A stretch of 56,790 bases of DNA from Burkholderiales bacterium. GTDB lineage: Bacteria > Pseudomonadota > Gammaproteobacteria > Burkholderiales > SG8-39. Below are positions 11,640 to 45,634 of the stretch, piece by piece. The DNA lies in the NCBI GenBank assembly GCA_035689325.1, contig DASSLQ010000107.1:1-56790 (forward strand), written 5' to 3'. Both the position numbers and the translations under genes were made by a program. Position 1 is the stretch's first letter, and every line of letters starts with the position of its first letter. A model generated the notes under the pieces. That model saw nothing but the letters and a program-made list of their open reading frames with translations, did no database searches and was not told the DNA's origin.

Positions 11640-12609
11640 CGAGCAATCCGTACTTGCGGATGTTGCGGTCGGCGATCTCCTGGATGCGCATGATCGCTTC
11701 GACCTTTACCTCCGGCGAGAAGAGATGCGCGAAGCGCCGCTGCGGCCGCAGATAGTCCTCCACCGCTCGTTTGCGGCGAATCTTGGAAACGCTCACCACT
11801 TCGCCCTGCTCCGCCTCGTACACCGGAAAAAGCCCGGTCTCCTTGGCGAGGCGAGCGATCTGCACGCTCGCTTCCGACGGGTGTCCCCAGCCGAGCGGGC
11901 ACGAGACGAAGATGTGGATGTAGCGCGCGCCGCGGAATTCCATCGCGCGGCGCACCTTGGCCTCGAGGTCGTGCAGCTCGGCGATGGTCGCCGTTGCGAC
12001 GTACGGAATGCCATGGGCGATGGCGATGGCAGGCACGTTCTTGCCCTGCCCGAATGCATTGCCGGCGGAAGTGGTGGCGGTGCGCGCGGCCGGCGGCGTG
12101 GCCGATGAGCGCTGCACGCCGGTGTTCATGTACGCCTCGTTGTCGTAGCAGATGTAGAGCACGTCGTCGTTGCGCTCGAACATCCCCGATAGGCAGCCGA
12201 AGCCGATGTCGGTGGTGCCGCCATCGCCGCCCTGCGCGACGACGCGCACGTCGTGGCGGCCCTTCACCTTCATCGCCGCCGCGATGCCGGTCGCTACCGC
12301 TGCGGCGTTGCCGAAGAGCGAATGGATCCACGGGATCTGCCAGGACGTCTCCGGGTACGGAGTGGAGAACACTTCCAGGCAGCCGGTAGCGTTGGCGGCA
12401 ATGAGCTGGCGCCCGGTGGCCTGCATCGCCGCATCGAGCGCGTAGCGCGCGCCGAGCGCTTCGCCGCAGCCCTGGCAGGCGCGGTGGCCGGAGTTGAGCG
12501 AGTTCGTGCGGCGCAAGTCCGACTGCACGGCGCGCAGCTCCTCGGGCAGCAGCCGGTTGCCCACCGTGAAGGTGCCGGTCTGGTAGTACTTAACGGGCTG
12601 GAACGCCAT
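11632..12609 (-). CDS. porB: 2-oxoacid (pyruvate-type):ferredoxin oxidoreductase beta (TPP) subunit
   Basis: 325 aa. Motifs GHRACQGCGEALGARY, GGDGGTTDIGFGCLSG, YDNEAYMNTGVQRS. Confidence 0.8.
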   Translation of the reverse strand: MAFQPVKYYQTGTFTVGNRLLPEELRAVQSDLRRTNSLNSGHRACQGCGEALGARYALDAAMQATGRQLIAANATGCLEVFSTPYPETSWQIPWIHSLFGNAAAVATGIAAAMKVKGRHDVRVVAQGGDGGTTDIGFGCLSGMFERNDDVLYICYDNEAYMNTGVQRSSATPPAARTATTSAGNAFGQGKNVPAIAIAHGIPYVATATIAELHDLEAKVRRAMEFRGARYIHIFVSCPLGWGHPSEASVQIARLAKETGLFPVYEAEQGEVVSVSKIRRKRAVEDYLRPQRRFAHLFSPEVKVEAIMRIQEIADRNIRKYGLLDA

Positions 12610-13837: not shown

Positions 13838-14381
13838 GTGCGAGCTTCCCGTAGGCCGCGCGCGCGGCGCCGATGTTGGCGAGCGCCACCTTGCCTGTGA
13901 ACTTCTCCTGGATGGCGCCCATCACCGCGTCGAGCGAGACCGCTCCCGAGAATGCGGCAAAGGCCCCGAGCAGCGCGGCATTGGGCACCGGCCGACCGAT
14001 GAACTTGAGCGCGAGCTCCGTCGCCGGCACGGTGCAGGTGCGGTACTTGCCCACCAGCTCGCCCAGGCCGAGCTCGGCGAAGCTGCGTGAGGTGTTGATG
14101 AGAATGTAGCCCTTCGGCGCGATGCCGGCGAAGAGATCGACCTGGTGCAGCAGCGTCGGGTCCTGGATGATGAGCGCGTCGGGCGCGAGGATCGGCTCGC
14201 GCACGCGGATCTCCTTGTCGTCGATGCGGCAGTACGCGACGACCGGCGCGCCGGTGCGCTCGGAGCCGAAGCTCGGGAACGCCTGCGCGTGCTTGCCCTG
14301 GCGGAAGGCGGCGATGGAAAGCATCTCGGCGGCGGTCACTACGCCCTGGCCGCCGCGGCCGTGAATGCGCACCTGGAACAT
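13821..14381 (-). CDS. porG: 2-oxoacid:ferredoxin oxidoreductase gamma subunit
   Basis: 186 aa. MFQVRIHGRGGQGVVTAAEML and FPSFGSERTGAPV are typical gamma-subunit motifs. Confidence 0.8.
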   Translation of the reverse strand: MFQVRIHGRGGQGVVTAAEMLSIAAFRQGKHAQAFPSFGSERTGAPVVAYCRIDDKEIRVREPILAPDALIIQDPTLLHQVDLFAGIAPKGYILINTSRSFAELGLGELVGKYRTCTVPATELALKFIGRPVPNAALLGAFAAFSGAVSLDAVMGAIQEKFTGKVALANIGAARAAYGKLAHAETA

Positions 14382-14414: not shown

Positions 14415-14428
14415 TTGATTTACGTCAA
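14415..14428. promoter_or_regulatory. Crp/Fnr-type box TTGATTTACGTCAA upstream of the por operon
   Basis: Exact TTGA-N6-TCAA. Centre about 40 bp upstream of the porG ATG (14381). Overlaps the lutC stop codon. Confidence 0.6.
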
Positions 14429-23118: not shown

Positions 23119-24459
23119 CTATTCGGGCGTCAGGAAGCGGTGGTATTGGCCGTCGGGAATCTCGTTGAGCTCGCAGGCAGTGCCCGGTGCAAAGAAGGAC
23201 CACGGTGTCGCCGTCTGCCGATCGGCAAACACGAAGCGCGCGCGCACGCTCCAGAAGTATCGCTGACCGGGCTTCAGCGCCTGCTCGATCCGGTGCTCGG
23301 GGCGCGTGAGGCCGTCTCGCTGATAGACGAGGCTGCGCCGTGAGCAGTCTTCCTCGTCCCAGACGCGCAGGTCGTAGGTGACGTGGCTGACGCTCGAGGC
23401 GAGCTCGCGGTCGAGCGCGCGCGGGAACGCCTCCCAGGTGAGCAGCGGCTGAACCGAGTCGGCGCTGCCGAAGCGCAGCGCGCTGCCCATGCACAGGTCC
23501 TTGCCATACTTGATGAAGGGCGCACTGACGAAGTCGCCGATACCGAGCGGCTTGGCGGCCGGCTTGCGCGGCTCGAGCCAGCACAGGCCATATTGCGGGT
23601 CGACCTCGGGCAGCCGGCCGAAGCTCGACGGCATGGCGAGGTCGACCGCGCCGAGCAGGAAGAAGCCATCGGCGATGCGCCCCGCGAGATCGTCGTAGGC
23701 CCGGTCGAGCTCTTCATCGATCAGCTTCGCGCCGTCCGCCGTCCAGCGAGCGAGCTCGCGCCGCGGACTGTGGTAGCGCAGCTCGCGCGCAAAGAGCGCT
23801 TCCTCGTCGCCGGCGTGCAGCAGGCGCGCGCGCACCGTGAGCGTCAGCGCGAGCGCCGGATTGCGGGTGCCGCCGGGACACGGATTGGCATCGAAGGGCG
23901 CGCGCGCCACGCATCCTTCCAGCTCGATCGCGAGCACGGCGAGCTCGAGCACCGTATCGGCGGGCGCTTCTTGGGCCACACGTACCGCTCCGTCGGCACC
24001 GAGCACGCTCGCGACGCGCGCCGCCAATGCCCGCTGGCTGTCGAGGCGAGCCGCCGCGTCGTGAATCACTTTGTCGATCTCGCGCGCCTTGTCGGCCGGC
24101 ACCGCATGCACGCTGCCTTCCACGGCACCGCCGGCGGCCTCCGCCGTGATCACCACGGGCGCCATGAGGAGCACGTAGGGCGTCGCCGCCCCGGCGCTCG
24201 CCGCGACGATCAGCACGGCGAGGCCCGCCTCGGTGCCGCGCCCGAGCGCGCCGAGCGCGGCGCCCGTCGGGCGGCTCTTGGCGAAGGTGGCGAAATTGGA
24301 GCGCGGGACGCTGTCCGCAGGAAGGATGACGACGGTGCCAACGGCGGCCTGCACCTCCGGCGGCGGCGACGCGGCGCCTTGCGTCGTGCAGCCGCTCAGC
24401 GCCGCTTCAAGCGAGAACCAGATACACGGCAGCGAGCGTGCCCAGGAACGCGAACCCAT
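23119..24459 (-). CDS. Unknown 446-aa putative lipoprotein
   Basis: ATG at 24459; LSGC lipobox near the N-terminus. No recognisable family. Overlaps the frdD 3-prime end by 53 nt. Confidence 0.55.
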   Translation of the reverse strand: MGSRSWARSLPCIWFSLEAALSGCTTQGAASPPPEVQAAVGTVVILPADSVPRSNFATFAKSRPTGAALGALGRGTEAGLAVLIVAASAGAATPYVLLMAPVVITAEAAGGAVEGSVHAVPADKAREIDKVIHDAAARLDSQRALAARVASVLGADGAVRVAQEAPADTVLELAVLAIELEGCVARAPFDANPCPGGTRNPALALTLTVRARLLHAGDEEALFARELRYHSPRRELARWTADGAKLIDEELDRAYDDLAGRIADGFFLLGAVDLAMPSSFGRLPEVDPQYGLCWLEPRKPAAKPLGIGDFVSAPFIKYGKDLCMGSALRFGSADSVQPLLTWEAFPRALDRELASSVSHVTYDLRVWDEEDCSRRSLVYQRDGLTRPEHRIEQALKPGQRYFWSVRARFVFADRQTATPWSFFAPGTACELNEIPDGQYHRFLTPE

Positions 24460-24751
24460 GGAAGATCGCCTTGAGGCCGGGCCCGACGTGCACGCCGAAG
24501 TCGTGCACGCAGTGGTACATGCGATGCAGGCCGTGGAACAGGAAGAGCCCGATCACGGCAACGATCGCGAGCTTGCCGATCGGGTTATGGACGAGCGCGA
24601 GCATGCGCTCGTAGCTCATCGTCTCGCGCGACATCAGGCCCATTGGCACGGCGATGCCGGTGATGAAGATGAGCACCGGCCCGATCAGCGCCGACAGCAT
24701 GCCGCCCGCGCCGAACAGCGACCAGAAGATCGGCTTGTTCGAGCGCTTCAT
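24407..24751 (-). CDS. frdD: Quinol:fumarate reductase membrane anchor subunit D
   Basis: ATG at 24751. KPIFWSLFGAGGMLSALIGPV...LSYERMLA...GLHRMYHCVHDFGVHV is collinear with E. coli FrdD. Confidence 0.85.
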   Translation of the reverse strand: MKRSNKPIFWSLFGAGGMLSALIGPVLIFITGIAVPMGLMSRETMSYERMLALVHNPIGKLAIVAVIGLFLFHGLHRMYHCVHDFGVHVGPGLKAIFHGFAFLGTLAAVYLVLA

Positions 24752-25116
24752 GCGCGCGCCGCCCACAACAGCAGCACCGAGCAGATGCCGATCGCCGTCA
24801 CGCCGGCGACGACGATCGCCTTGTCGGGCACCGGCACGCGCGGCAGGGTCTTCGGCATGATCTTGAACCAGGTCCAGGCGTGATACGCGACGAGCACGAA
24901 CGCGAGCACGTGGTACGCAATGACCCACGGGCGCGAGAGCCGCTCGAGCCAGTCCTCGTAGCGCACCTCGCTCTGCGTCAGGCGCGCGACGCCGACGAGC
25001 AGCGTAAGCGCGTAGATCGTGAGAACGACGCAGCTCGCCTCGCGCACCATGTACCACACGTAGTACGGATTGCGCCGCCACCACCACGCGGTCACCGGGC
25101 GCCGATAGGCCTTCAT
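24748..25116 (-). CDS. frdC: Quinol:fumarate reductase membrane anchor subunit C
   Basis: 122 aa. RRPVTAWWWRRNPYYVWYMVREAS resembles E. coli FrdC [24 protein letters not shown]. Confidence 0.85.
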   Translation of the reverse strand: MKAYRRPVTAWWWRRNPYYVWYMVREASCVVLTIYALTLLVGVARLTQSEVRYEDWLERLSRPWVIAYHVLAFVLVAYHAWTWFKIMPKTLPRVPVPDKAIVVAGVTAIGICSVLLLWAARA

Positions 25117-25847
25117 CTGCCACTCCGCGGCGCGAGGAAGCGCAGGAAGTAGTCCTTGGTGCTTTCGATCTTGTTCTGGTTCACCGCGCGCGCCGGATCG
25201 ACACCCTTCGGGCAGACCTCGGAGCAGTAGCCCACCAGCGTGCAGCCCCAGACGCCGTCCTCGGCGTTGACGAGCTGCATGCGCTCCTGTTTTCCACCGT
25301 CGCGGGAATCGGCGTTATAGCGGTGCAGCAGCGCGAGCACGGCCGGGCCGGTGAATTTCTCGTTCAGCCCGTACTGCGGGCACGCGGCGTAGCACAGCAG
25401 GCAGTTGATACATTGCGAGTACTGGTAGTAGTCGGCCAGCTGCTCCGGTGTCTGGCGGTGCGGCTCGGCGCCGGGATCGACCTTCGGCATGAGCCAGGGC
25501 TTGGCGGACTCGAGCTTCGCCAGGAAATCGGATTGGTCGATGGCGAGATCGCGCACGATCGGGAAATGCGTAAGCGGCTCTACGCGCAGCGGTCCGGGGT
25601 AGTAGTCGCGCAGGAAGGTCTCGCATCCGAGCCGCGGCACCCCGTTCACCATGGTGCCGCAGCTGCCGCAGATCGCCATGCGGCAGGACCAGCGGAAGGT
25701 GAGGCTGCCGTCGAGCTCGTCCTTGATGTACTGCAGGCCCTGCAGCACGGTCATGTCGTCGGTAAAGGGCACGTCGTAGTGCTGCCAGTGCGGCGCGGCA
25801 TCCGCCTCCGGGTGGTAGCGCAGGCACTCGATGGCGATCGTTCTCAT
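25113..25847 (-). CDS. frdB: Fumarate reductase iron-sulfur subunit
   Basis: ATG at 25847 (MRTIAIECLRYHPE). Motifs CRMAICGSCGTMVNG, CINCLLCYAACP, CTLVGYCSEVCPK. Confidence 0.9.
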   Translation of the reverse strand: MRTIAIECLRYHPEADAAPHWQHYDVPFTDDMTVLQGLQYIKDELDGSLTFRWSCRMAICGSCGTMVNGVPRLGCETFLRDYYPGPLRVEPLTHFPIVRDLAIDQSDFLAKLESAKPWLMPKVDPGAEPHRQTPEQLADYYQYSQCINCLLCYAACPQYGLNEKFTGPAVLALLHRYNADSRDGGKQERMQLVNAEDGVWGCTLVGYCSEVCPKGVDPARAVNQNKIESTKDYFLRFLAPRSGR

Positions 25848-27604
25848 GTCATCACCGCCTGCTTGCCGGCGCCCCCGTAGTGACGCTGGCGGGGCGCGGA
25901 CTTGGTGATGGTTACCGGCTGGTGCTCTATGCGCGGAGCGCCATCGCCGCCGTGGTGAGCGAGCGTGTGCTTGAGGAAGTTGGCGTCGTCGCGCCGCTCG
26001 TAGCCGTCGAGGCGCTGGTGCGCGCCCCGCGACTCGCGGCGCGAGAGTGCCGAGTGCGCCATCGCCTCCGCCACTTCGAGCATGAAGCCGAGCTCGATCG
26101 CCGTAAGCCACTCGGTGTTGAAGGCCCGGCCGCGATCGTCGAGCTTCACGCCGCGCCGGTAGCGTTCGCGCAGCTCGGCGAGCTTGCTGCAGGCGGCCTT
26201 CATGCCGGACGCGTCGCGATAGATGCCCACGCCCTCCTCCATGGCGTCGCGCATCCCGTCGCGCAGCTTGGCCACGCGCTCGCCCTGCTCATTGCTCAAC
26301 ATCGCGCCAAAGCGGGCCGCCGATGCGGCGGCGGCCTCGACGTTGCGCACCGGCCGCGCGCTGCGCGCGAACTCGGCGGCCGCGTCGCCCGCGGCGCGGC
26401 CGAACACCACGATCTCGACCAGCGAATTCGAGCCCAGGCGGTTCGCGCCGTGGATGCCGACGCTCGCGCACTCGCCGGCCGCATACAGCCCCGCGAGCGG
26501 CGTCTCGCAGCGCACATTCGTGTAGATGCCGCCCATCGTGTAATGCACCGCCGGGCACACGGGGATCGGCTGCTTCACCGTATCGATGCCGGCGAAGGTC
26601 TTCGCCGCCTCGGTAATGAGCGGCAGGCGCTCGTGGATCTTCTTCGCGCCGAGGTGGCGCAGATCGAGGTGCACTGCCGGCCCCTGCGGCGTGGCGATGG
26701 TGCGGCCCTTGTGCAGCTCGTGCCAGAACGCCTGCGAGAGGCGGTCGCGCGGGCCGAGCTCCATCGCTTTCACGCGCGGCCACGGATCGACCGGGCCGAG
26801 GCCGTAGTCCTGGAGATAGCGATAGCCGTCCTTGTTGACGAGGATCGCGCCTTCGCCGCGGCATGCCTCGGTGATCAGGATGCCGGTGCCCGGGAGGCAG
26901 GTCGGGTGCCACTGCATGAACTCCATGTCGCGCAGCGGCGCGCCGTGGCGGAACGCGAGGCCCATGCCGTCGCCGGTAACGGTACCGGCGTTGGTGTTCT
27001 GGCGATAGACGCGCCCGGCACCGCCGGTCGCGAGCACTACGGCAGCGCATTCGATGAGCACGAACTCGCCGCTCGCGATATCGATCGTGAGCACACCGCG
27101 CACGCGGCCGTCCTCGACGATGAGATCGGCGCAGAAATGCTCGTCGTAACGCCGGATCTGCGGATACTTGAGCGACGTCTGGAAGAGCGTATGCAGGATG
27201 TGAAAGCCGCTGCGGTCCGCCGCGAACCAGGTACGCTGGATCGACATGCCGCCAAAGAAGCGCGTGTTGATCGTCCCGTCGCTCTTGCGGCTCCACGGAC
27301 AGCCCCAGTGCTCGAGCTGCATCAGCTCGGCGTTGCAGCGCTCGACGAAATAATCGACCACGTCCTGGTCGCACAGCCAGTCGCCGCCCGACACGGTGTC
27401 GTTGAAGTGCGCTTCCAGGCTGTCGTCATCGCGCGTGACGCCGGCCGCGCCGCCTTCGGCTGCCACGGTGTGGCTCCTCATCGGCAGCACCTTGGAGACG
27501 AGCGCGACAGTCAGGCGCGTGTCCTGCGCGGCCACGGCGAGGGCTGCGCGCAAGCCCGCGCCACCGGCGCCCACTACGACGACATCCGCCTTGGCCGATT
27601 GCAT
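25844..27604 (-). CDS. frdA: Fumarate reductase flavoprotein subunit
   Basis: 586 aa. Motifs VVVVGAGGAGLRAAL, SHTVAAEGG (covalent-FAD His context), HYTMGGI. Confidence 0.9.
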   Translation of the reverse strand: MQSAKADVVVVGAGGAGLRAALAVAAQDTRLTVALVSKVLPMRSHTVAAEGGAAGVTRDDDSLEAHFNDTVSGGDWLCDQDVVDYFVERCNAELMQLEHWGCPWSRKSDGTINTRFFGGMSIQRTWFAADRSGFHILHTLFQTSLKYPQIRRYDEHFCADLIVEDGRVRGVLTIDIASGEFVLIECAAVVLATGGAGRVYRQNTNAGTVTGDGMGLAFRHGAPLRDMEFMQWHPTCLPGTGILITEACRGEGAILVNKDGYRYLQDYGLGPVDPWPRVKAMELGPRDRLSQAFWHELHKGRTIATPQGPAVHLDLRHLGAKKIHERLPLITEAAKTFAGIDTVKQPIPVCPAVHYTMGGIYTNVRCETPLAGLYAAGECASVGIHGANRLGSNSLVEIVVFGRAAGDAAAEFARSARPVRNVEAAAASAARFGAMLSNEQGERVAKLRDGMRDAMEEGVGIYRDASGMKAACSKLAELRERYRRGVKLDDRGRAFNTEWLTAIELGFMLEVAEAMAHSALSRRESRGAHQRLDGYERRDDANFLKHTLAHHGGDGAPRIEHQPVTITKSAPRQRHYGGAGKQAVMT

Positions 27605-28294
27605 CTAGCGCCTGGTGATGGTCAGAAGCTGGTACAGGCCGCCGAAGAACGTTTGCTTCTCCACGCGAGCGACGGCGCCCGCCGGGAACCAGTCGGCGAT
27701 CTCGTGGCGCCAGAGATCCATGGCGAAGGGCTCGAGCGTCTTGAGGATGCCGACCATCGGCAGATAGAGCGGGTTCGATTTCCGCGGGCGGTGGTAATCG
27801 ACGATGACGAGCTGCCCTCCCGGCTTCACCACGCGCAGCGCCTCGGCGATGGTGCGCCGGCGCACGTCTTCGGGCTGCTCGTGCAGCAGGAAAAAGAGCA
27901 GCGCACGGTCATAGGCGCCGCTGGCGATGTCGAGCGCGGCGCTGTCGCCCTGCATCAGGCCGACGCGCGGATCGCCGGGGAGCTTGCGTGCGAGGTTGTC
28001 GAGTTGCACACGCAGGATGTCGACCACGTCGAGGCTGCCGCCGGTGCCAAGGCGCGAGCGCAGCCGGTCGGTAAGGTTGCCGTAGACGCAAGCGATCTGC
28101 AGCGTCCGCCCTTCGAGGCGCGCGCCGAGCGCGTCAAGCGCGGCGTCGCGCAGGCGGCCGAAGTTGCCCCACAGGATCAGGTTGACGAGCCATTGGCGCT
28201 CGAACAAGCGCACCGCGTTCGGGTGGACGTAGGCCCACCAGTAGGTCTGCGCGAGGTAGCGGGGTACGGCGATGGGTTCGATGGCGCGCTGCAA
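27605..28294 (-). CDS. rquA: Rhodoquinone biosynthesis methyltransferase-like protein RquA
   Basis: Pattern YWWAYVHPNAVRLFERQ..ILWG..LQIACVYG..FFLLHEQPEDVRR..VIVDYHRP..NPL..LEPFAMDLWRHEI matches what I recall of the RquA family (atypical QxACVYG motif I). Likely TTG start at 28294, 7 nt after AGGAG; the track start at 28363 is a TTG inside the regulatory box. The TAG stop abuts the frdA ATG. Confidence 0.65.
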   Translation of the reverse strand: MQRAIEPIAVPRYLAQTYWWAYVHPNAVRLFERQWLVNLILWGNFGRLRDAALDALGARLEGRTLQIACVYGNLTDRLRSRLGTGGSLDVVDILRVQLDNLARKLPGDPRVGLMQGDSAALDIASGAYDRALLFFLLHEQPEDVRRRTIAEALRVVKPGGQLVIVDYHRPRKSNPLYLPMVGILKTLEPFAMDLWRHEIADWFPAGAVARVEKQTFFGGLYQLLTITRR

Positions 28295-28349
28295 GTTTCG
28301 ACTCCTCCGGGTTACGCCGTCGATTGTGCGAGGCGCGCGCCGCGCCGAT

Positions 28350-28363
28350 TTGACCTGCGTCAA
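28350..28363. promoter_or_regulatory. Crp/Fnr-type box TTGACCTGCGTCAA upstream of rquA-frdABCD
   Basis: Exact palindrome. Centre about 62 bp upstream of the proposed rquA start and 47 nt downstream of the stop of the cytochrome gene at 28410. Confidence 0.65.
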
Positions 28364-28409
28364 AAAGGGGCGCCCGCGCGCCCCGATTCGGAATTTTCCG
28401 AGTCCGGCG

Positions 28410-28694
28410 CTACTTGGCCGCGAGCACCTGCTCGACCGCGCTCTTCAGCTCCGCGTCCGAGGCATTGACCTTCATATGGCCTTTGCCTTCTTTCAGCTTG
28501 GCGACGAGCGCGGCCTCGGCGCCTTTATTGTCCTTGTACTTCGCCGCAACCTCCTTGAAGGCCGGGCCGACTTTCTTCTTGTCCATCTCGTGGCAGTTCA
28601 GGCAGCCCTTGGCCTTGAGGACGTCGGACTGAGCAAGGACAGCGCCGCTCGCAGCGGCGGCGACCACGGCAGCGGCAATCAGCAGGTTCTTCAT
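28410..28694 (-). CDS. Monohaem class I cytochrome c, MtoD-like
   Basis: 94 aa with signal peptide and a single CLNCH. VGPAFKEVAAKYK...KLKEGKGH pattern. Lies immediately downstream of an MtoB-type porin gene. Confidence 0.75.
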   Translation of the reverse strand: MKNLLIAAAVVAAAASGAVLAQSDVLKAKGCLNCHEMDKKKVGPAFKEVAAKYKDNKGAEAALVAKLKEGKGHMKVNASDAELKSAVEQVLAAK

Positions 28695-28709
28695 TCCTTG
28701 GTTCCTCGT

Positions 28710-30860
28710 CTAGAACTTGTACTTGGCGAGAGCGTACACGATGTTGGTGGTGTAGGGCTGGAAGGCGTACTGCCCGGTCGTGTAGGAGAAAGACGGAGCG
28801 GTGACGCCGACGGTCGTGACGTACTTCGTATTGTCGTAGCCGATGTCGCTGTACCAGTAGTGCTCGTACGCGTAGCCGCCGGTGAATTCCCAGCTGCGGT
28901 TGTAGTCGTAGATCGCGCGCAGGCTGAGGGACGTGCGCCGCGTATTGTCGAAGTTGTTGATCGGCTGGAACACGGTGGTGGCACCGCCCGGTTGCGCGGT
29001 AAAGTCGGCGGCGCCGTTGGTCTCCGCATAGGTCGCCGAGCCCTTCAGCGTCAGCTTCTCGCGCGGCTTCCAATCTGCGCCGACGCCAACTTCCCAGCTC
29101 TTGTCGGTGTTGTTGGCATTCCAGTTGTAGGTCGAAGTGGTCGGCGGCGCCGATGGATCGGGGTTGCCGGTGCCGACGCGGTGCGTCGACTTGAATTTCG
29201 TGTATTCGAAGTCGGTGAAGGCGAGCACGCGGAAGCGCGACGGATCGCCGTATCCGACGCTCAGGTACAGCTCCTGGCGCTGGTCGGACGTGCGGCCGAG
29301 CTGCGTGTCCTTGTAGTTGTTGTCCTTGAAGATCGCCTCCACGCCGACGTCGAAGCCGCCGCCCGGCACCATGTCCAGCACGGCCTTGATCAGGTTCTGG
29401 TTGACATTGGCGAAATCGAAGCGCCGCACGAAGAGGTCCATCGGGTTCGCCGCAAGCGTCGCGACGTCCGCCTCAAAATCCGAGCGCCGCTCCAGGAACT
29501 GGTACTTGACGCGGCTCGTCAGCCAGTCGAGGGAGCTGTTCTTCCACTCGACGAAGACTTTGTTGTCCTTGGTGCTCGGGAAATCGGCGCGCTCGCGCTC
29601 GGTGTGCAGGTATTCGTAGCCGCCGGAGAACCTGTTTTCGCGCGACAGGCGGTAGTTCGCCTCGGCCCCGATGTCGTGCCTGCGGTAGTGGAACAGGTCC
29701 GCGCTGCACAACACGCCCGCCGCAGCGGCGCAGTTGACGCGCGGGTCGGTCGAGCCCAGGCGCAGCCCCGACGCGACGGTCGGGTTGAACGTCATCTCGG
29801 TCGAATCGTTCTTCTGACTCGCGTAGTCGTAGTAGAGCCGCGTATCGAGCGTCTTCGTCGGATGCGAGGCGAGCGAGACCGAGGCGGTGGTGTTCTTGAT
29901 GTCGCCGTGGAAGCTGGACTCGTTCGGATTGGTGGCCGGGAACGCTCCCCCGGTGGAGAGCATCGTCTGCTGGATGTTCACGTCGTTGGTCAGGTGGCTC
30001 GTCGTGAAGCGCCCGGCGAGCGTCGAATCCATCGGCAGCTGACGCAGGTTGCCGTTGATGGCGAGCCGCGTGAGGTCGTTGCTCGGCGTAAGCACGGTCG
30101 TATCGAGGCCGTTGCCGAAGAAATCGTTCTGCCAGCGCAGCAGGGCGTTGCCGTTGTCGAAGCTGCTGTGCATGAGGTTTATCGCGAGATGTCCGCGCTT
30201 GCTGGAGTAGCCAGCCTCGCCGCTCACATTGCGCGTCGTGTAGTCGATCGGCGTGGGCAGGTCCATGAAGCCGTTGCCGGGGCTCGTGCCTTTGGCGCCT
30301 GCGAACACATTGATGCCCTTGCGCGTCACCTCGTTGCCGTCGAGGCGGAAATAGAAGGGCGACGCCGCCTGCCACTCGGCGAAGCCGCCGACGTCCCTGC
30401 GCTTGTAGGAGTGGTCGAAGCTATTCCAGGTCGCGGGGTTGGTGTTCGGGAACGTACCCGTGAGCGTGGTGCCGCCGATGCCGATGTACGGCGAGAGCGC
30501 GCCGGGACCCGAGCCGAAGTTGTGCCGCAGCTCGTTGTCGTAAAGGCGGTACTTGTACGTGCCGTAGCGTCCGCCCTGCAGGTTGAGGTACTGGTCATCG
30601 CGCCCGAGGTTCTCGCCGTAAGCGTTGAGATAGTTCGATTCGCCGCGCTGCCGCAGCTCGAAGGCGCCGATCGGCTTCGTGCCTTCGCTCAGATCGCGAT
30701 ACTCATTCAGCTTCGAGGGATCGCTGGCACTCTCGCTGACATGGCGGCCGCCGACGGTGACCGAGCCGGACCATTCCTTCTGCGTTTGGGTCTCCTGGGC
30801 TCCCGCGAACGTGGGAACGAACAGCCCTGCGACGAGAACCGATAAGAGCTTGCGTTCCAT
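28710..30860 (-). CDS. mtoB: MtrB/PioB/MtoB-family outer-membrane porin (module 1)
   Basis: 716 aa with signal peptide. LNEYRDLSEGT...YLNLQGGRYGTYKYRLYDNELRHNF is typical of the family. Beta-strand-rich, ends in aromatic ...AKYKF. Confidence 0.8.
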   Translation of the reverse strand: MERKLLSVLVAGLFVPTFAGAQETQTQKEWSGSVTVGGRHVSESASDPSKLNEYRDLSEGTKPIGAFELRQRGESNYLNAYGENLGRDDQYLNLQGGRYGTYKYRLYDNELRHNFGSGPGALSPYIGIGGTTLTGTFPNTNPATWNSFDHSYKRRDVGGFAEWQAASPFYFRLDGNEVTRKGINVFAGAKGTSPGNGFMDLPTPIDYTTRNVSGEAGYSSKRGHLAINLMHSSFDNGNALLRWQNDFFGNGLDTTVLTPSNDLTRLAINGNLRQLPMDSTLAGRFTTSHLTNDVNIQQTMLSTGGAFPATNPNESSFHGDIKNTTASVSLASHPTKTLDTRLYYDYASQKNDSTEMTFNPTVASGLRLGSTDPRVNCAAAAGVLCSADLFHYRRHDIGAEANYRLSRENRFSGGYEYLHTERERADFPSTKDNKVFVEWKNSSLDWLTSRVKYQFLERRSDFEADVATLAANPMDLFVRRFDFANVNQNLIKAVLDMVPGGGFDVGVEAIFKDNNYKDTQLGRTSDQRQELYLSVGYGDPSRFRVLAFTDFEYTKFKSTHRVGTGNPDPSAPPTTSTYNWNANNTDKSWEVGVGADWKPREKLTLKGSATYAETNGAADFTAQPGGATTVFQPINNFDNTRRTSLSLRAIYDYNRSWEFTGGYAYEHYWYSDIGYDNTKYVTTVGVTAPSFSYTTGQYAFQPYTTNIVYALAKYKF

Positions 30861-30869
30861 GTGCCCCCC

Positions 30870-31832
30870 TTAGCGGAAGAAGAGCTTGCCGCGCACCGCA
30901 GGCGCGTTGCTGCCGTGCAGGTTGTAGTGACAGTTGACGCAGCCGCGCGCGATGAGCCGGGTGTTCTGCGTGCCGGTCCAGGAGCCGCTCGCGTCGTAGA
31001 TCGTGCCCGGATGCCGGGACGCGTCGTGGCAGTCCTGGCAGACGTTGGGCGCCTTTTCGGCAAGCAGCCGCGCGTGGTTCGCGCCATGCGGGTTATGGCA
31101 GGTGAGGCAGTTCTCCTCGACCGGCGGATGGTTCCAGACGAACGGGCCGCGCTTTTCCGCATGGCAGCTGGTGCAGAGCTGCGGGATCGATTCGGCGTTG
31201 ACCATCGCCTTGGAAAGCGCGCCGTGCGGGTTGTGGCAGTCGGTGCACGCGAGCTTGCCCTCGATGATCGGGTGATGCGACGGCTTGAGCAGCTGCGAGC
31301 GGATCTGCTTGTGGCAGGTCGTGCAGGTCTCGTACTGCAGCTGGCGCTCCGTGGTCTGGAACGGCGCGACCGTGGGGTTGGGCTTCTTCAGCGCGATCGT
31401 CGCGCCCGGCCCGGGCTTGCCGTGCAGGCTGTGGCAGTCGTTGCACGCCACGTCCTGCTTCTTGTGCGCACCCGAGTCCCAGAAGGCGAGGTGGCGGTTG
31501 CCCTGGTGGCAGGAGAGGCAGACGCCGGCCTTCTGGCCGGCGGGGATTGCCGGGTTGTTGAAGCCGACGATGCCGCCGACGCCGCGGCCGCCGCCAAGTT
31601 TGGCGTGCTCGAGCGCGGTGCCGTGGCAGGTCGTGCAGGTCGGGCCGGCGACGTTGCCGACCTGGCCGTGCTTCGTCTCGAAGTAGCTCTGGACCTGGTC
31701 GGCGTGGCAATTCTTGCAGACCTCGGACTCGGGGGCCTTGGGTTTCTCTTGTTGTCCTAGCGCAGGCGCCCCGGCCAACACGGCGACGCAAGCGAACGCG
31801 GCCGACAGAACACGCAGTAGTAAGCCCTGCAT
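30870..31832 (-). CDS. mtoA: Periplasmic decahaem cytochrome c, MtrA/MtoA/PioA/DmsE family (module 1)
   Basis: ATG at 31832 preceded by GGAGGAG. 320 aa with signal peptide and ten CXXCH motifs (CKNCH...CVNCH). Confidence 0.85.
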   Translation of the reverse strand: MQGLLLRVLSAAFACVAVLAGAPALGQQEKPKAPESEVCKNCHADQVQSYFETKHGQVGNVAGPTCTTCHGTALEHAKLGGGRGVGGIVGFNNPAIPAGQKAGVCLSCHQGNRHLAFWDSGAHKKQDVACNDCHSLHGKPGPGATIALKKPNPTVAPFQTTERQLQYETCTTCHKQIRSQLLKPSHHPIIEGKLACTDCHNPHGALSKAMVNAESIPQLCTSCHAEKRGPFVWNHPPVEENCLTCHNPHGANHARLLAEKAPNVCQDCHDASRHPGTIYDASGSWTGTQNTRLIARGCVNCHYNLHGSNAPAVRGKLFFR

Positions 31833-31905
31833 TGTTGTCTCCTCCAGTGCGGCTCGCGCATGCACGCGCCGACGAGCCATTGAACTGCGTTGGCGTCATC
31901 ATCGT

Positions 31906-31945: not shown

Positions 31946-31959
31946 TTGACCGGCATCAA
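31946..31959. promoter_or_regulatory. Crp/Fnr-type box TTGACCGGCATCAA upstream of mtoA (module 1)
   Basis: Exact palindrome in the 193-bp gap between the module-2 porin stop and the module-1 mtoA start. Confidence 0.6.
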
Positions 31960-32025: not shown

Positions 32026-34374
32026 TTAGAAGTTGTAGATCAAGCTCGCGTAGACGACGTTGACAGAGTAGCTCGGCGCCCGCTGGTTCGTCGGCAGCAC
32101 CGCTGTCGGCGTGAACCCGGTCTGCATGCCGTTGTAGATGAAGTCATCGCTCGTCAGGTGCTGATAGAGATAGCCGAGCTTGAATGTCGACTGCTTCGTC
32201 ACCTGATAGAGGCCGCTGATCTTGAACTGGAAGAGCTTGTTCGTGATGAGCGGCGTAGGGACGCAGGTCAGGAAGAAAGGATCGGCGCAAGTCCTTCCGC
32301 TTGCATCCGTCGTCGAATAGTTCAGGACGGTGCTGTACTCAGTCCTGGTGTACGAATAGAGTGCATCGCCGAGAAGGTCCAGCCGTCCGCCCATGAATCC
32401 GCCGTGTTTGACACCAACGCCGATGGTGCTGTCGCTGTCTTTCATGGCGTTGCTCCAAGTGGCACCGGAGGGCACGCCGATCGTGGTGGCGCCGGGAGCG
32501 GTAGGAGTGGTCGTGGGCGATCTTTGCTGGTTGGTCAGGTCGCGTATGCGCTCCTGCTGAGTCCAATACGCGGTGATCGTGCCGTTTTCGTGATACCGGT
32601 AAGTGCCGTCGGCATTCAGGGACCATGACTTGCCGCGCTGCATGCCGAAGTCGGTGCCGTAATTGTCTACGGTGAGGCGCCCGTTCAGCCCCAGAGACAG
32701 CCGGTCGGCTGCCTCCCAGTTGGCTCCGGCCTTCAGCATGTTCTGCTTGCGCGACGCTTCGAAGAACGGATTGAAGCCTCTGAACTCGCCACCGTTGATA
32801 CCGGTGATGCCCGCGGGCGTACCTACGCCAGGAAGCGCTGGCGCCACGACGGCGTTGCCGTCCAGGCCAATCATGGGGGCTCGTGCGGTCAGATCGCGGT
32901 CTGATCTGCGGTTGCTGAAGCTGTAAGACGCGTTCAGGTTAAGTCCGTCAGCGGCTCTCAGCCTATAGAGGACGCCGAGCTTGTCTTCTTTGGTGCGCGG
33001 TACGGTCACACAGTTGGTGCCCGGCGCGTAGGGTGGCGTGCCGCCGCCCGACGCGTACTGGTTGCAGAAGCGGTGCGTATCGTCGTGGTTATACGCGAGC
33101 CGCAGTTTCTGGCTCGTGCTCAGCCGATAATCTCCAGCGAGCTCAGCTTGTTCCTTCTTGTAACTGAGTGGCGCATTCGGATAGTTGGCCGTATTCCCGC
33201 CGCTGATCGCGTTGTAGTTGTAAATGTTCGAAGCGGTCTGGTTGTCGCGGTAGTCGTACTTGAACCCGCCGGACAAGATCAGGTTGCGGGTAGTCTGGTC
33301 GGTGATCTTGAGATCGGCGTGGGAGGTCTTCACGACGCCGTCCAGCGACGTGGTCGGCGCCGGCGTCACCATCACCGTGGGCACGATGTTGTCGTAGGCG
33401 TAGACCATGTCCTGCCTGTTGTAGCCATAGGAAAGACCGCCGGCCAGCTTGGTTCTCGCCGATAGCGCATAGCCTCCGGTGAAGTTGAGCTGGTGGAACT
33501 GGCTGCTCGGCGGCGTGCCCATGGTTTCGTTCACGTTCGCGCCGGCCCAGGTCGTGAATCTCACCCCGTTGTAGTTATCCTGGAAATACGAGCCGAAGTA
33601 CGACAACGTCGCGTTCGACCTGCTGCCAAGCCAATTCAGGGCCAGATTGACCGTGTCGGTGGTGTAGTTCGTGGGCATCGGCAGTATGGCCGGCCTCTCC
33701 CCGGTAGCGCCGCTGATGGCGGCGGCGCCGAATGCCATCAGTTTCGCGCCCGACTGTTCGAGATGGTTTGCTTCCAGCTTGACACTCCAGCGCGGATCAA
33801 TGATGAGGGTGCCGCTGGCCGAGGTGTTTTCCCGCTCGTTGCTGATCTTCATGGTTTGAAACTGCCCGAGCTGCGCGGCCGAGAGCGTGCGCGCATTCGC
33901 GGCGGTACCGAAGCTCGGCAGGGTGAAGCTGTTGCCGCCCATGCTGCCGGTATACGGCGTCTGGTAGCTGTCCGACGTGTAGTGCGTCAGCTGATCGAAG
34001 CCGACGCCGATGGTCCACCGGCCCTGATCGCCTACCGTGGCGGCCAGGCTACGCGAAGTCAGGCCGAGATCCGTGCCGATCAATTGCCAGCGTCTGGTGC
34101 CATTGCCGTCCGCGTAGGCGTCGCCGCCGCGGACGTCGAAGTTGCCGATCAGGTAGGCGCCAGACCTGACGAGCCCGGTGTACTCGCCGAACTTGTAGGA
34201 ATCCTTCGAAACCGTCGCCACGCCGAGCTCCACGAAGTTCGGCGGCGCTCTGAGCGAGCCGAGTTGCGTGTCCTGAGCACGGGCAGGCACGGCGGCCATC
34301 GCGATGAGCACTCCCTGTACCGCGAGCGCGATCGCGCTTGCTTTGACTTTTTCGTTACGCGTTTTCATCGCCAT
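32026..34374 (-). CDS. mtoB: MtrB/PioB/MtoB-family outer-membrane porin (module 2, larger)
   Basis: 782 aa. YKFGEYTGLVRSGAYLIGNFDVRGGD is typical of the family; ends ...SLIYNF. The start may be the second ATG at 34368, which has better SD spacing. Confidence 0.8.
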   Translation of the reverse strand: MAMKTRNEKVKASAIALAVQGVLIAMAAVPARAQDTQLGSLRAPPNFVELGVATVSKDSYKFGEYTGLVRSGAYLIGNFDVRGGDAYADGNGTRRWQLIGTDLGLTSRSLAATVGDQGRWTIGVGFDQLTHYTSDSYQTPYTGSMGGNSFTLPSFGTAANARTLSAAQLGQFQTMKISNERENTSASGTLIIDPRWSVKLEANHLEQSGAKLMAFGAAAISGATGERPAILPMPTNYTTDTVNLALNWLGSRSNATLSYFGSYFQDNYNGVRFTTWAGANVNETMGTPPSSQFHQLNFTGGYALSARTKLAGGLSYGYNRQDMVYAYDNIVPTVMVTPAPTTSLDGVVKTSHADLKITDQTTRNLILSGGFKYDYRDNQTASNIYNYNAISGGNTANYPNAPLSYKKEQAELAGDYRLSTSQKLRLAYNHDDTHRFCNQYASGGGTPPYAPGTNCVTVPRTKEDKLGVLYRLRAADGLNLNASYSFSNRRSDRDLTARAPMIGLDGNAVVAPALPGVGTPAGITGINGGEFRGFNPFFEASRKQNMLKAGANWEAADRLSLGLNGRLTVDNYGTDFGMQRGKSWSLNADGTYRYHENGTITAYWTQQERIRDLTNQQRSPTTTPTAPGATTIGVPSGATWSNAMKDSDSTIGVGVKHGGFMGGRLDLLGDALYSYTRTEYSTVLNYSTTDASGRTCADPFFLTCVPTPLITNKLFQFKISGLYQVTKQSTFKLGYLYQHLTSDDFIYNGMQTGFTPTAVLPTNQRAPSYSVNVVYASLIYNF

Positions 34375-34389
34375 CTCCGATCTCCGGGC

Positions 34390-35376
34390 CTAGCGCTGGA
34401 AGTAGCCGCCATTGGGGCTGTTCGAGCCGTGGATCACGCTGTGGCAGTTGAGGCAGGCGCGTCCCAGGGCCTGGTTGCTCGGGCTCTGGTTCGTGAGCCC
34501 CGCCTGATTGCTGGCGGCGTTACGGCCGACCGGGTTCTCGCTCGAATGCTGTCCGTCATGGCACGACTGGCACAGCCAGGGAGCGCGGGACACCAGCAGC
34601 GGCGTGAGGTTCGAGCCGTGCGGCGTATGGCAGTTGGCGCAGTTCTCCACGACCGGCTGGTGCTCGAACAGGAACGGGCCGCGCTTCTCGGCGTGGCAAG
34701 TGAAGCAAGTCTCGTTGATGGTGTTCTTCTTCACCATGGTCGGCCCGGGCGAGCCGTGGGGGTTGTGGCAGTCGGAGCACACGACCTTGCCGACCTGGAT
34801 CGGATGGGTGGAAATCTTGTAGCTGTCGGCGCGCTGCTCGCGGTGGCAAGCAAAGCAGACCTGCGTTTGGGTCTTCTTGTAGAGCACGGCGTCTGTGGCC
34901 GCATGACTCTGGTGGCAGTCGCTGCAGGACATCAGATTCACCTGGTGCGCGCTGCCCGCCCAGTGCGTACGCGCCGTTCCCCGGTGGCAGCTCAAGCAGG
35001 CTTCGCTGCGCTGCTCGACCGGCGTAGCCGCGTGCTTGCCGAACATGAGGTCCGGCTTGTCCGCGCCGGGATTGGACTGGTGCGCCACGCTCTCGCCGTG
35101 GCAGCTGGTGCAGGTCGGCGTGCGGCTGTCGCCGCGCACGCCATGCTTCGTCTTGCCGATCTCAAGAACCGGATAGGGCCAGCTCTCGTCGTGGCAGGTC
35201 GTGCACTTGGCGTCGCCGCGCAGGACCTTGTCCTTCTCCTGCGCGGCGGGCTGCTGCGCATGCGCAGGAGGAACGAGCAGCGCGTCAGCTGCGATCAGCG
35301 CCAGCAGTCCGAGCGCGAGGAAAAGAAGGCGCCGCCATGCATGGCGCGAAAATGACGCAGTACCGCCGAAGCTCAT
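34390..35376 (-). CDS. mtoA: Periplasmic decahaem cytochrome c, MtrA/MtoA family (module 2)
   Basis: 328 aa. GGAGGAG lies 5 nt before the ATG. Signal peptide and ten CXXCH motifs (CTTCH...CLNCH). Confidence 0.85.
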   Translation of the reverse strand: MSFGGTASFSRHAWRRLLFLALGLLALIAADALLVPPAHAQQPAAQEKDKVLRGDAKCTTCHDESWPYPVLEIGKTKHGVRGDSRTPTCTSCHGESVAHQSNPGADKPDLMFGKHAATPVEQRSEACLSCHRGTARTHWAGSAHQVNLMSCSDCHQSHAATDAVLYKKTQTQVCFACHREQRADSYKISTHPIQVGKVVCSDCHNPHGSPGPTMVKKNTINETCFTCHAEKRGPFLFEHQPVVENCANCHTPHGSNLTPLLVSRAPWLCQSCHDGQHSSENPVGRNAASNQAGLTNQSPSNQALGRACLNCHSVIHGSNSPNGGYFQR

Positions 35377-36179: not shown

Positions 36180-36193
36180 TTGACATGGATCAA
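36180..36193. promoter_or_regulatory. Crp/Fnr-type box TTGACATGGATCAA upstream of the CbcL-like gene
   Basis: Exact palindrome. Centre about 65 bp upstream of the ATG at 36252. Confidence 0.6.
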
Positions 36194-36251
36194 CTGCGGC
36201 TCGAGTTACCTCGGGCAGCTACGCCCGCCGCTTGTTAGCTTAGCGGCCATC

Positions 36252-38729
36252 ATGAGGCTCCTTGCGTGCGCTGCGCTGCTCACGGCAGCCATGCCCTTGT
36301 GCACCTCCCTGCAAGACGCGCAGGCGCAGACCGGCGCCGACTCGGCGCTCGCGGAATCGAAGGGCTGCTTCAGCTGCCATGCGATCGACAAGCAGGTTGT
36401 CGGACCGGCGTTCCGCGATGTGGCGAACAAATACGGCGGCGACCAGCGCGCGGCAGCCAGGCTCGCCGACCAGCTGAAGAAAGGCACCGGCCACCCGATC
36501 AAGGTCGAAGGCACCGACGCCGAGGTCGAGGCGCTGGTGCGCTATGTGCTCGCGCAGGGCGGCGCGGCCGCGCCGCGAGCGCCCAAGGCACCTGCGAAAC
36601 CGGCTGCGGCCACCGCGCTGCTCGAAGCGAAGGGCTGCCTCGGCTGTCACGGCGTCGACAAGCCGGGGGTCGGCCCGGCATTCAAGGACGTGGCCGCGAA
36701 GTACAAGAACGAGAAGACCGCCGAGGCGACGCTGATCGCGAAGCTGCGCGAGGGAAAGGGCCATCCCGTCAAGGCCGAGGCGTCGCAAGCGGAATTGAAG
36801 ACGCTGGTGCAATTCGTGCTCGCACAGGCGGCTGCCGCCAAGCCTGCCGGCAAATCGCAGGCGGCCACGGCGGCGAGCCCGCCGCTCGACAACGCCGTGT
36901 GCCTCGGCTGCCACGGGCAGCCGGGCTTTTCGATCACCGGCGTCGACGGCGCGCCGCGTGCGCTGCACGTGACGAAGGAGCGCTTCGAGAGCAGCGTCCA
37001 CGGCAAGCGGCAATGCGTCGAATGCCATCGCAACATCACCGAGATACCGCACAAGCCCGGTACGCAGGTGCGGGTGAGCTGCATCACCTGCCACGATGAC
37101 CTGTGGAAGCAGGCGCAGCGTCAAGGCACCACGGGCGAGCACGCGCGTCTCGGCGTGGTGGTCGCGCAGATCGACCGTTACATGAAGTCGGTGCACGCGC
37201 GGCCGAGCCGCGAAGATCAGTCGCGCACCAACGCCACCTGCTACAACTGCCACGATGCGCACTACGTCTATCCGCTCGGCACGACCGAGCGCGCCGACTG
37301 GCGCCTGAGCATCCCGCAGGTCTGCGGCAAGTGTCATGCGGAGAAGCTCGACGCCTACGCCACCTCGGTGCATGGTACGGAAGTGCTGAAGCTCCGCAAC
37401 CCCGCCGCCGCCATCTGCTCCGACTGCCACACTACACACGACATCCAATCGCCCGAAGGGACTGCTACCAAGCTCGTCATCGTCAAGAACTGCGGCGGCT
37501 GCCACGTCGCGAGCTTCAAGTCCTATACCAGCACCTATCACGGCCAAGTCCATCTGCTCGGCTACACCTATACCGCGAAGTGCTTCGACTGCCACGGCAG
37601 CCACGGCATCAAGCGCGTGAGCGATCCTTCGTCCAGCGTGAACCTCGAAAACCGCCTCGCCACGTGCCGCAAGTGCCACGCCAATGCAACCGCCGGCTAC
37701 GTCAGCTTCGAGCCGCACGCGACGACGCACGACTTCCACCGCTTCCCCCAAGTGTGGCTGTCGGCCAAGTTCATGATCGGCCTGCTCGCCGGCACGTTCC
37801 TCTTCTTCTGGACCCATACGGCGCTTTGGTTCTACCGCGAGTACCACGAGCGCCAGCGCGGCGCAATGCGCACGCACGTGAGCACGGCCGAGCTGCCCGG
37901 CGTGGCGGCCGGCAAGCAGTACCAGCGCTTCGGTCCCTGGTGGCGCCTCGCGCATCTGCTCTTCGCGGTCAGCCTGATGGTCCTCACGCTCACCGGCATG
38001 ACCGTGCTCTATGCGGAATCGAGCTGGGCGCCGGTGGTCATCAAGCTGCTCGGCGGCACGCGCAGCGCAGCGATCATCCATCGCCTGGCGGCCGTGGTGT
38101 TCGCCAGCGTCTTCCTCGTCCACCTGGTGGTGGTGCTCAACCGGGTGCGCAAGTGGCGCACGCTCGAGCAGTGGTTCGGTCCGCGCTCGCTGATCCCGAG
38201 CTGGCAGGACATCAAAGACATCTTCTTCATGTTCCGCTGGTTCGTCGGCAAGGGGCCGCGCCCGTTCTTCGACCGCTGGACCTACTGGGAGAAATTCGAC
38301 TATTGGGCGCCCTTCTGGGGCGTGACGATCATCGGCGTAAGCGGGCTCATGATGTGGCTGCCCGCGCTCACCGCGTCGCTCTTGCCCGGGTGGGTGTTCA
38401 ACGTCGCGATCCTGGTGCACGGCGAGGAAGCGCTGCTCGCAGCGCTGTTCCTCTTCACGGTGCATTTCTTCAACAACCACTTCCGGCCGGACAAGTTCCC
38501 GCTCGACGTGGTGATGTTCACGGGCAGCATGCCGATCGAGGAGTTCCGCCGCGAGCATCGCCTGGAATACGAGCGGCTCGTGCGCACGGGGGAATTGCAG
38601 AAGCACTTGGTGGATGCGCCCTCGCTGCCGATGTCGCGCGGCTCGCGCATCCTCGGCTTCACGCTGATCGGCACCGGCCTCGTTCTCCTCCTGCTGGTGC
38701 TGGTCGGTTTCTTCGGGCACGCCGCGTAA
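36252..38729 (+). CDS. Fusion protein: 2 x MtoD-like monohaem c domains + nine-haem c domain + C-terminal FdnI/HydC-type cytochrome b membrane domain (CbcL-like)
   Basis: ATG at 36252 with signal peptide; 825 aa; 11 CXXCH motifs. Residues about 30-205 are two repeats collinear with the 94-aa cytochrome at 28410. Residues about 495-825 carry 4-5 TM helices with conserved His (WRLAHLLF, IIHRLAAVVFASVFLVH, ILVHGEE..FTVHFFNNH). Confidence 0.75.
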   Translation: MRLLACAALLTAAMPLCTSLQDAQAQTGADSALAESKGCFSCHAIDKQVVGPAFRDVANKYGGDQRAAARLADQLKKGTGHPIKVEGTDAEVEALVRYVLAQGGAAAPRAPKAPAKPAAATALLEAKGCLGCHGVDKPGVGPAFKDVAAKYKNEKTAEATLIAKLREGKGHPVKAEASQAELKTLVQFVLAQAAAAKPAGKSQAATAASPPLDNAVCLGCHGQPGFSITGVDGAPRALHVTKERFESSVHGKRQCVECHRNITEIPHKPGTQVRVSCITCHDDLWKQAQRQGTTGEHARLGVVVAQIDRYMKSVHARPSREDQSRTNATCYNCHDAHYVYPLGTTERADWRLSIPQVCGKCHAEKLDAYATSVHGTEVLKLRNPAAAICSDCHTTHDIQSPEGTATKLVIVKNCGGCHVASFKSYTSTYHGQVHLLGYTYTAKCFDCHGSHGIKRVSDPSSSVNLENRLATCRKCHANATAGYVSFEPHATTHDFHRFPQVWLSAKFMIGLLAGTFLFFWTHTALWFYREYHERQRGAMRTHVSTAELPGVAAGKQYQRFGPWWRLAHLLFAVSLMVLTLTGMTVLYAESSWAPVVIKLLGGTRSAAIIHRLAAVVFASVFLVHLVVVLNRVRKWRTLEQWFGPRSLIPSWQDIKDIFFMFRWFVGKGPRPFFDRWTYWEKFDYWAPFWGVTIIGVSGLMMWLPALTASLLPGWVFNVAILVHGEEALLAALFLFTVHFFNNHFRPDKFPLDVVMFTGSMPIEEFRREHRLEYERLVRTGELQKHLVDAPSLPMSRGSRILGFTLIGTGLVLLLLVLVGFFGHAA

Positions 38730-38738: not shown

Positions 38739-38752
38739 TTGACCTAAATCAA
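38739..38752. promoter_or_regulatory. Crp/Fnr-type box TTGACCTAAATCAA upstream of the tetrahaem c4-type gene
   Basis: Exact palindrome. Centre about 40 bp upstream of the ATG at 38785. Confidence 0.55.
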
Positions 38753-45620: not shown

Positions 45621-45634
45621 TTGACGCGCGTCAA
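45621..45634. promoter_or_regulatory. Crp/Fnr-type box TTGACGCGCGTCAA upstream of regulator 1
   Basis: Exact palindrome. Centre about 41 bp upstream of the ATG at 45669. Confidence 0.6.

Follow-up and report, generated by a model that had tools for sequence, protein, structure and literature searches.

How a bacterium would make a low-potential quinone and the enzyme that uses it in step with one another is the question raised by a 56,790-nt contig (DASSLQ010000107.1, assembly GCA_035689325.1) of an uncultured soil Burkholderiales bacterium (lineage SG8-39), in which rquA, the gene of the rhodoquinone biosynthesis enzyme, lies directly ahead of frdABCD, the genes of a quinol:fumarate reductase. 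This whole 56.8-kb stretch is referred to as the window, all coordinates are those of the window, and rquA and frdABCD are read on its minus strand. The reading that we favour, with a probability of roughly 80%, is that rquA is the first cistron of a five-gene rquA-frdABCD operon. According to the mechanism proposed here, RquA would convert ubiquinone to low-potential rhodoquinone as does the Rhodospirillum rubrum enzyme, which turns ubiquinone directly into rhodoquinone with S-adenosylmethionine (SAM) as the amino donor and Mn2+ as the cofactor (PMC9814641), and an E. coli-type FrdABCD would oxidize rhodoquinol and reduce fumarate. The operon would be driven by a class II promoter with a site for a CRP/FNR-family dimer, TTGACGCAGGTCAA, approximately 41.5 bp upstream of the predicted transcription start, a CACAAT −10 hexamer and no −35 element, and its transcript would carry a leader of approximately 21 nt with a GGAGGAG Shine-Dalgarno sequence before the TTG start codon at 28294. 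The TAGATG junction between rquA and frdA and the three ATGA overlaps that follow it would let ribosomes move from cistron to cistron.

Organization of the operon and identity of RquA

The rquA gene (27605..28294, minus strand; 229 aa, TTG start) ends with a TAG codon at 27607-27605, and the ATG of frdA occupies positions 27604-27602, with 0 bases between them. The letters of this TAGATG junction (27602..27607, minus strand; cgcTAGATGcaa, in the minus-strand context ACCAGGCGC-TAG-ATG-CAATCG) thus bear out the zero spacer reported in the initial annotation of the locus. The reading frame on the rquA side has 229 codons, or 252 if counted from the mechanical start of the open reading frame (ORF), and that of frdA has 586. 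A zero spacer is nothing unusual for an operon junction, and all four junctions of the operon are tight, those between frdA and frdB, frdB and frdC, and frdC and frdD being, every one, an ATGA overlap of the ATG with the preceding stop codon. Since the three internal frd junctions are of this type, the TAGATG junction appears to be of the same kind, with rquA behaving as the first cistron, and both co-transcription and coupled translation of the genes are predicted from these junctions.

The genes that follow rquA, all on the minus strand, are identified by their family matches as those of an E. coli-type four-subunit quinol:fumarate reductase, with the subunits in the order A, B, C, D. The flavoprotein subunit, FrdA (25844..27604, 586 aa), scores 981 bits with NF006686 (cutoff, 854 bits), positions 1-587 of the model being aligned to residues 1-582, and the iron-sulfur subunit, FrdB (25113..25847), scores 381 bits with NF009051 (cutoff, 333 bits). 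Of the two membrane anchors, FrdD (24407..24751) is matched by NF003977 with 134-137 bits (cutoff, 60 bits) and by PF02313 as well, while the score of FrdC (24748..25116) with the FrdC model, 79 bits, is under the cutoff of 143 bits; its position and size fit FrdC. The ATG at the junction is taken as the true start of frdA because NF006686 aligns from residue 1 and a Met-Gln start (ATGCAG or ATGCAA) recurs in related loci, and the TAG codon as the natural end of rquA because the RquA model, aligned over positions 1-218 of 218, spans residues 10-228 of 229.

Downstream, a 446-aa ORF (23119-24459, minus strand) shares 53 nt with the 3′ end of frdD. A lipoprotein-like signal (LSGC) and a coding-like GC content at third codon positions (0.87) were noted in it, with no Pfam or NCBIfam match and no homologue among 80 related rquA loci. 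It was rejected as a conserved part of the operon on these grounds, and seems to be an insertion specific to this lineage, located between frdD and a BON-domain gene.

That the 229-aa protein is RquA is indicated, in the first place, by its end-to-end match to the NCBI equivalog model NF038261 (‘rhodoquinone biosynthesis methyltransferase RquA’), with 293.1 bits against a cutoff of 175, in a comparison that the initial annotation had proposed as a check. The motifs from which that annotation had recognized the protein, namely YWWAY, LQIACVYG, FLLHE, VDYHRP and LEPFA, are all found in it, at columns that vary little or not at all when nine RquA sequences are aligned, comprising the window protein and eight others of 59-87% identity (among them those of Brachymonas denitrificans DSM 15123, Roseateles violae and Noviherbaspirillum). 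Within a class I methyltransferase fold, SAM motif I reads LQIACVYG, with no GxGxG and with Q66, C69, Y71 and G72 invariant in the nine sequences; a degenerate motif I is a published hallmark of RquA (PMC5953543). Asp92 is also invariant in the nine sequences, and Asp117, found 25 residues further, is replaced by Asn in Brachymonas. By its spacing, this pair may correspond to the essential D118/D143 pair of R. rubrum RquA, which has an equal 25-residue separation. The R. rubrum protein (Rru_A3227) likewise combines a full-length match to NF038261 with an atypical motif I, and differs in being longer at the N-terminus, where the additional residues can be dispensed with in R. rubrum (PMC9814641). 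In the window, rquA is placed as the first gene of the predicted frdABCD operon.

The survey of rquA/frdA abutment that had been suggested by the initial annotation was run on the 80 closest rquA loci from species-representative genomes. In 28 of them the gene immediately after rquA, and on its strand, is frdA, and in 12 of these 28 the spacer is either 0 nt (n = 3) or negative, with overlaps of 1, 4 or 14 nt (n = 9); a further five have spacers of 4-11 nt. The junctions of the three closest relatives read TGAATG, TAGATG and TAAATG. The order is frdABCD then rquA in 12 of the 80 loci (the Competibacter and Contendobacter group), frd is on the opposite strand in three, and no frd gene is present within 6 kb in 37. 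Tight coupling of rquA and frdA is typical of this clade, not universal.

Promoter and start codon of rquA

Fourteen exact matches to TTGA-N6-TCAA are present in the window, as compared with 0.21 ± 0.48 expected from 100 dinucleotide-preserving shuffles, none of which reached 14, so that the excess is clearly beyond chance. The copy ahead of rquA, TTGACGCAGGTCAA (28350..28363, minus strand; centre, 28356.5), is a perfect palindrome that reads TTGACCTGCGTCAA on the plus strand, and is predicted to be a CRP/FNR-family box from the excess in the window and from its conservation in 15 related loci. The first triplet of the box is the TTG at 28363 that was called mechanically as the start of the rquA ORF, in keeping with the earlier remark that this start lies inside the palindrome. 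The next in-frame start codon is the TTG at 28294, with no in-frame ATG or GTG between the two. The latter codon is supported as the better start of rquA because the corresponding codon, preceded by a Shine-Dalgarno sequence, is where the homologues begin: in the window, GGAGGAG (28302..28308, minus strand) ends 7 nt before the TTG, and sites of the GGAGG type precede the corresponding codon in loci L001, L005, L006 and L008. Furthermore, the predicted start of transcription lies downstream of 28363, which would exclude the TTG at that position and would leave a leader of approximately 21 nt before the TTG at 28294. The choice of this codon, 7 nt after AGGAG, in the initial annotation is thus well founded, and the separation of about 62 bp that it had given between the box centre and the start codon, as compatible with a class II site, is found to be 62 nt.

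The promoter assignment depends on the spacing between the box and a −10-like hexamer, CACAAT (28323..28328, minus strand), which begins exactly 21 nt after the box. When the window is compared with the 15 closest box-bearing rquA loci, the half-sites are invariant in the 16 promoters, with only 47% identity in the N6 core and 35% in the 17-nt spacer that follows. Eleven of the 16 promoters carry a NANAAT hexamer (CACAAT, GACAAT or CAGAAT) at precisely this 21-nt distance from the box, and in four of the other five an AT-rich hexamer resembling a −10 element is located there or is displaced by no more than 1 nt. Relative to a conserved −10-like hexamer, the 21-nt geometry holds in 11-12 of the 16. 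Placing the hexamer at −12 to −7 gives approximately −40.5 to −41.5 for the box centre, and transcription is predicted to start at around 28316-28315. A box centred at about −41.5 occupies the class II position of FNR and CRP activators. A scan of 27400-28800 with the sigma-70 consensus returned no −35/−10 pair, which fits an activator-dependent promoter and proves nothing. The box ahead of rquA is supported, on the strength of these comparisons, as a predicted CRP/FNR-family site in the class II position. Of 78 testable loci, 22 have an exact box in the 200 bp that precede rquA, for a background in the same loci of approximately 0.017 per 200 bp.

Immediately upstream of the box, a hairpin with seven G-C pairs, GGGGCGCGCGGGCGCCCC, followed by a T-run (28367..28384, minus strand) resembles an intrinsic terminator. 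It would end the preceding cytochrome c gene (28694-28410) and separate it from rquA, and its T-run extends into the box.

Regulators, read-through and other rival readings

The observations that weigh against a tightly coupled operon under a low-oxygen-type promoter of its own come from the related loci, from the regulators encoded in the window and from RNA libraries, and are best considered together with the alternatives that they may favour. As for the related loci, the spacer is of 37-143 nt in 11 of the 28 rquA-to-frdA loci, which indicates that tight coupling is not required, and a box is missing, even when one mismatch is allowed, from many rquA loci, 10 of the 27 testable ones with the rquA-to-frdA order among them. 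An exact box upstream of frdA is found in none of the 12 loci in which frdABCD precedes rquA, and the promoter belongs to a Burkholderiales-like clade, not to every rquA/frd cluster. Metagenome-assembled genomes (MAGs) that carry this Burkholderiales-like locus are in some cases labelled Enterobacteriaceae, Clostridia, Streptomycetaceae, Ktedonobacterales or Chloroflexota (e.g. loci L006, L014 and L016); such labels are probably errors of binning or labelling rather than signs of real transfers.

The identity of the regulator is the point at which an alternative survives best. The initial annotation had described the box of rquA as its own FNR-type box. A site of the CRP/FNR family is upheld by its conservation and by the excess of 14 boxes over the 0.21 expected; the attribution to FNR proper finds no counterpart in the two CRP/FNR-family regulators encoded in the window (45621-46400 and 46440-47120, plus strand, each with PF00027 and PF13545), both of which are devoid of an N-terminal Cys cluster. 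They score 30 bits with the Fnr model NF008365, for a cutoff of 228, and are under the cutoff of every named regulator model, the best being FtrB, still well below its cutoff. It is possible, although not the likelier outcome, that the box is bound by a non-oxygen-sensing FixK/Dnr/FtrB-like protein of the CRP family, such as these two, and that the operon answers to nitric oxide, to a two-component cascade, or to redox or carbon status instead of responding to O2 through an Fe-S FNR. Both regulators contain ETLSR, an E--SR recognition motif of the type that reads TTGA half-sites, and both are encoded 17-18 kb from rquA and preceded by boxes, three upstream of the first (45429, 45581 and 45621) and one upstream of the second (46397). 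The tandem resembles a cascade that regulates itself; of the three boxes upstream of the first regulator, the one at 45429 may act on a divergent multihaem gene instead. However, the window covers only 57 kb, and the rest of the genome could encode a canonical FNR, while the content of the regulon, with fumarate reductase, 2-oxoacid:ferredoxin oxidoreductases, Usp, Hsp20 and multihaem cytochromes, suits an anaerobic switch. The term FNR-type therefore applies to the rquA box at the family level only, and either an O2-sensing FNR encoded outside the window or the FixK/FtrB-like proteins encoded within it may be its regulators, activation at low oxygen being presumed in the reading that we favour.

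The source of the transcript is the second point to be weighed. The window is near-identical to soil-metagenome contigs, one of which (X1) holds 92% of the sampled words, and RNA data were available from four soil metatranscriptome runs of a single study, as fragments of 151-248 nt at a depth of 2-3, in libraries in which DNA may be present. Near-identical fragments cover frdA (26808-27381) and the cytochrome c gene (28402-28697), which suggests that the locus is expressed in situ, given the possible presence of DNA. In these four sparse runs no fragment was found over the rquA/frdA junction (27582-27680), and one 151-nt fragment of 100% identity (28247-28397) runs from the terminator stem through the box and past the predicted start, providing weak evidence either for some read-through from the cytochrome c gene or for DNA carry-over. 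Taken further, this fragment, the location of all the genes on one strand and the overlap of the hairpin T-run with the box could mean that rquA-frdABCD lacks any promoter of consequence, and depends chiefly on read-through that originates in the upstream mtrA-mtrB-cytochrome c operon, which has a box of its own (31946-31959), the palindrome being only the context of a terminator and its T-run. Such an explanation is quite improbable: the spanning fragment has a depth of 2 in a library that may contain DNA, and the box and the −10 hexamer at fixed spacing are kept in loci L002, L005, L006, L009 and L014, where the upstream sequence is unrelated and there is no hairpin.

Finally, the possibility that the protein is an ordinary UbiE/UbiG-type C- or O-methyltransferase, to which the exclusively generic methyltransferase domains detected by Pfam and the JGI label ‘UbiE’ of many close homologues might point, is very remote indeed, being effectively refuted by the hidden Markov model scores (21-31 bits with the UbiE/MenG models, for cutoffs of 158-420, versus 293 bits with that of RquA), with LQIACVYG in place of an intact GxGxG as in other RquA sequences (PMC5953543).

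The surrounding regulon island and its known relatives

The 14 boxes span positions 6269-52748, with starts at 6269, 14415, 21016, 28350, 31946, 35453, 36180, 38739, 45429, 45581, 45621, 46397, 50026 and 52735, and all but one of them lie between called genes. They precede the gene for citrate synthase and an operon for a 2-oxoacid:ferredoxin oxidoreductase, dctPQM together with the divergently oriented malic enzyme gene, two pairs that resemble mtrA-mtrB, several genes for cytochromes c, a multihaem gene at the head of an NrfD/4Fe-4S module, hsp20, a fusion of an ADP-forming acyl-CoA synthetase with a GNAT domain, and a usp gene. Such a coherent set for anaerobic energy metabolism supports a functional reading of the rquA box, and the window may be described, from the distribution of the motif, as a dense regulon island of the CRP/FNR type.

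The exception among the boxes is the copy at 36180, which lies at the mechanical 5′ end of an 849-aa ORF (36180-38729, plus strand). The product of this ORF has motifs of cytochrome c and of multihaem proteins, together with a membrane domain of the cytochrome b561 type (Ni_hydr_CYTB-like) at the C-terminus, and is matched by no NCBIfam model. As the TTG called mechanically as its start coincides with the first three bases of the box, the real start is probably downstream. Three other boxes (14415-14428, minus strand; 38739-38752 and 45621-45634, plus strand) are found approximately 40 nt upstream of an ATG. The −10-like hexamers GATACT, TAGGGT and GATACT, respectively, follow these boxes at a distance of 21 nt and leave only 5-7 nt to the ATG. 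With such spacing, the mRNAs of the oxidoreductase gamma subunit, of a cytochrome c and of the first Crp/Fnr regulator are predicted to be leaderless, and the real start of the latter would be the ATG at 45669 rather than the TTG at 45621.

Two separate 2-oxoacid:ferredoxin oxidoreductase systems (13-4279, plus strand, and 10014-14381, minus strand) are present, each with a GltD-like NAD(P)H-binding Fe-S flavoprotein, and citrate synthase, flavodoxin and FeoB are encoded between them. Their presence suggests a ferredoxin-linked or reversible branch of the tricarboxylic acid cycle beside fumarate reductase. In related loci, dctP directly follows rquA where frd genes are missing (L005:2891-3892 and L006:1735-2736) or follows frdD (L012, L014 and L031), with a BON-domain gene between frdD and dctP in L001, which suggests that the TRAP C4-dicarboxylate transporter belongs to the same larger fumarate/C4-dicarboxylate module.

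A broader proposal, which we consider rather unlikely, is that rquA-frdABCD would be one unit of an anaerobic island of approximately 45 kb under a single CRP/FNR-type regulon, with 14 sites and two apparently self-regulating regulators, and that rhodoquinone would also feed MtrAB-type extracellular electron transfer in a ubiquinone-only Betaproteobacterium. Two pairs of a decahaem MtrA and an MtrB-PioB porin are encoded just upstream of rquA (28710-31880 and 32026-35376, minus strand), and the same box accompanies the two mtrAB pairs, the NrfD/4Fe-4S/multihaem module and the multihaem-cytochrome b fusion. A decahaem mtrA-like gene is found within 6 kb of rquA in 15 of the 80 loci (L004, L007, L012, L013, L019, L029, L034, L044, L048, L058, L069, L070, L075, L078 and L079), and this nearness may link rhodoquinone to extracellular electron transfer. 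If so, the role of rhodoquinone would be like that of the menaquinol that feeds CymA/MtrCAB in Shewanella.

The linkage of rquA and frdA is not new, having been published in 2018 by Stairs et al. (eLife, PMC5953543), who found rquA often near complex II genes, possibly in one operon. In the supplementary table of that work, which counts positions from RquA at 0, FrdA, B, C and D of Rhodospirillaceae bacterium BRH_c57 occupy −1 to −4, and FrdA of Novispirillum itersonii is at −1, so that direct rquA/frdA adjacency is the same there as here. The present locus differs in belonging to a lineage of soil Burkholderiales MAGs, and neither the exact stop/start abutment nor a class II CRP/FNR promoter is described in that paper. 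The FNR-activated frdABCD operon of E. coli encodes the same four-subunit type of enzyme in tightly packed cistrons, with an FNR-family site predicted in the window as its counterpart; the E. coli enzyme uses menaquinol, whereas the operon in the window carries a gene for making its own low-potential quinone from ubiquinone. The closest parallel for the promoter is that of ubiTUV, upstream of which FNR sites have been predicted across Pseudomonadota (ISME J 2024, PMC11707229). Those sites likewise consist of a palindromic 14-bp FNR-type motif at activation-type positions before genes of anaerobic quinone biosynthesis, and the scan covered ubiT, ubiU and ubiV, not rquA, the sites of which come from the present analysis. 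A literature search on rquA or rhodoquinone together with FNR found nothing relevant beyond the ubiTUV study. A conserved class II CRP/FNR-type promoter before rquA thus seems to be undescribed, a modest and incremental gain: the locus is a new example of a known arrangement, and its new element is the conserved promoter within an unusually dense regulon island.

The practical consequences concern annotation in the first place, as many RquA homologues are still called UbiE, and the mechanical start of the rquA ORF at 28363 is wrong because it lies inside a regulator site. The dense regulon island could also serve to define the FNR-type motif of this lineage, and the locus helps to predict the anaerobic capacity of soil Burkholderiales MAGs. 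With respect to the biology of the organism, a tight operon and a low-oxygen-type promoter in common account for the joint production that is proposed for the quinone and its consumer, and rquA with frdABCD would amount to a transferable kit, complete in itself, by which bacteria limited to ubiquinone could respire fumarate.

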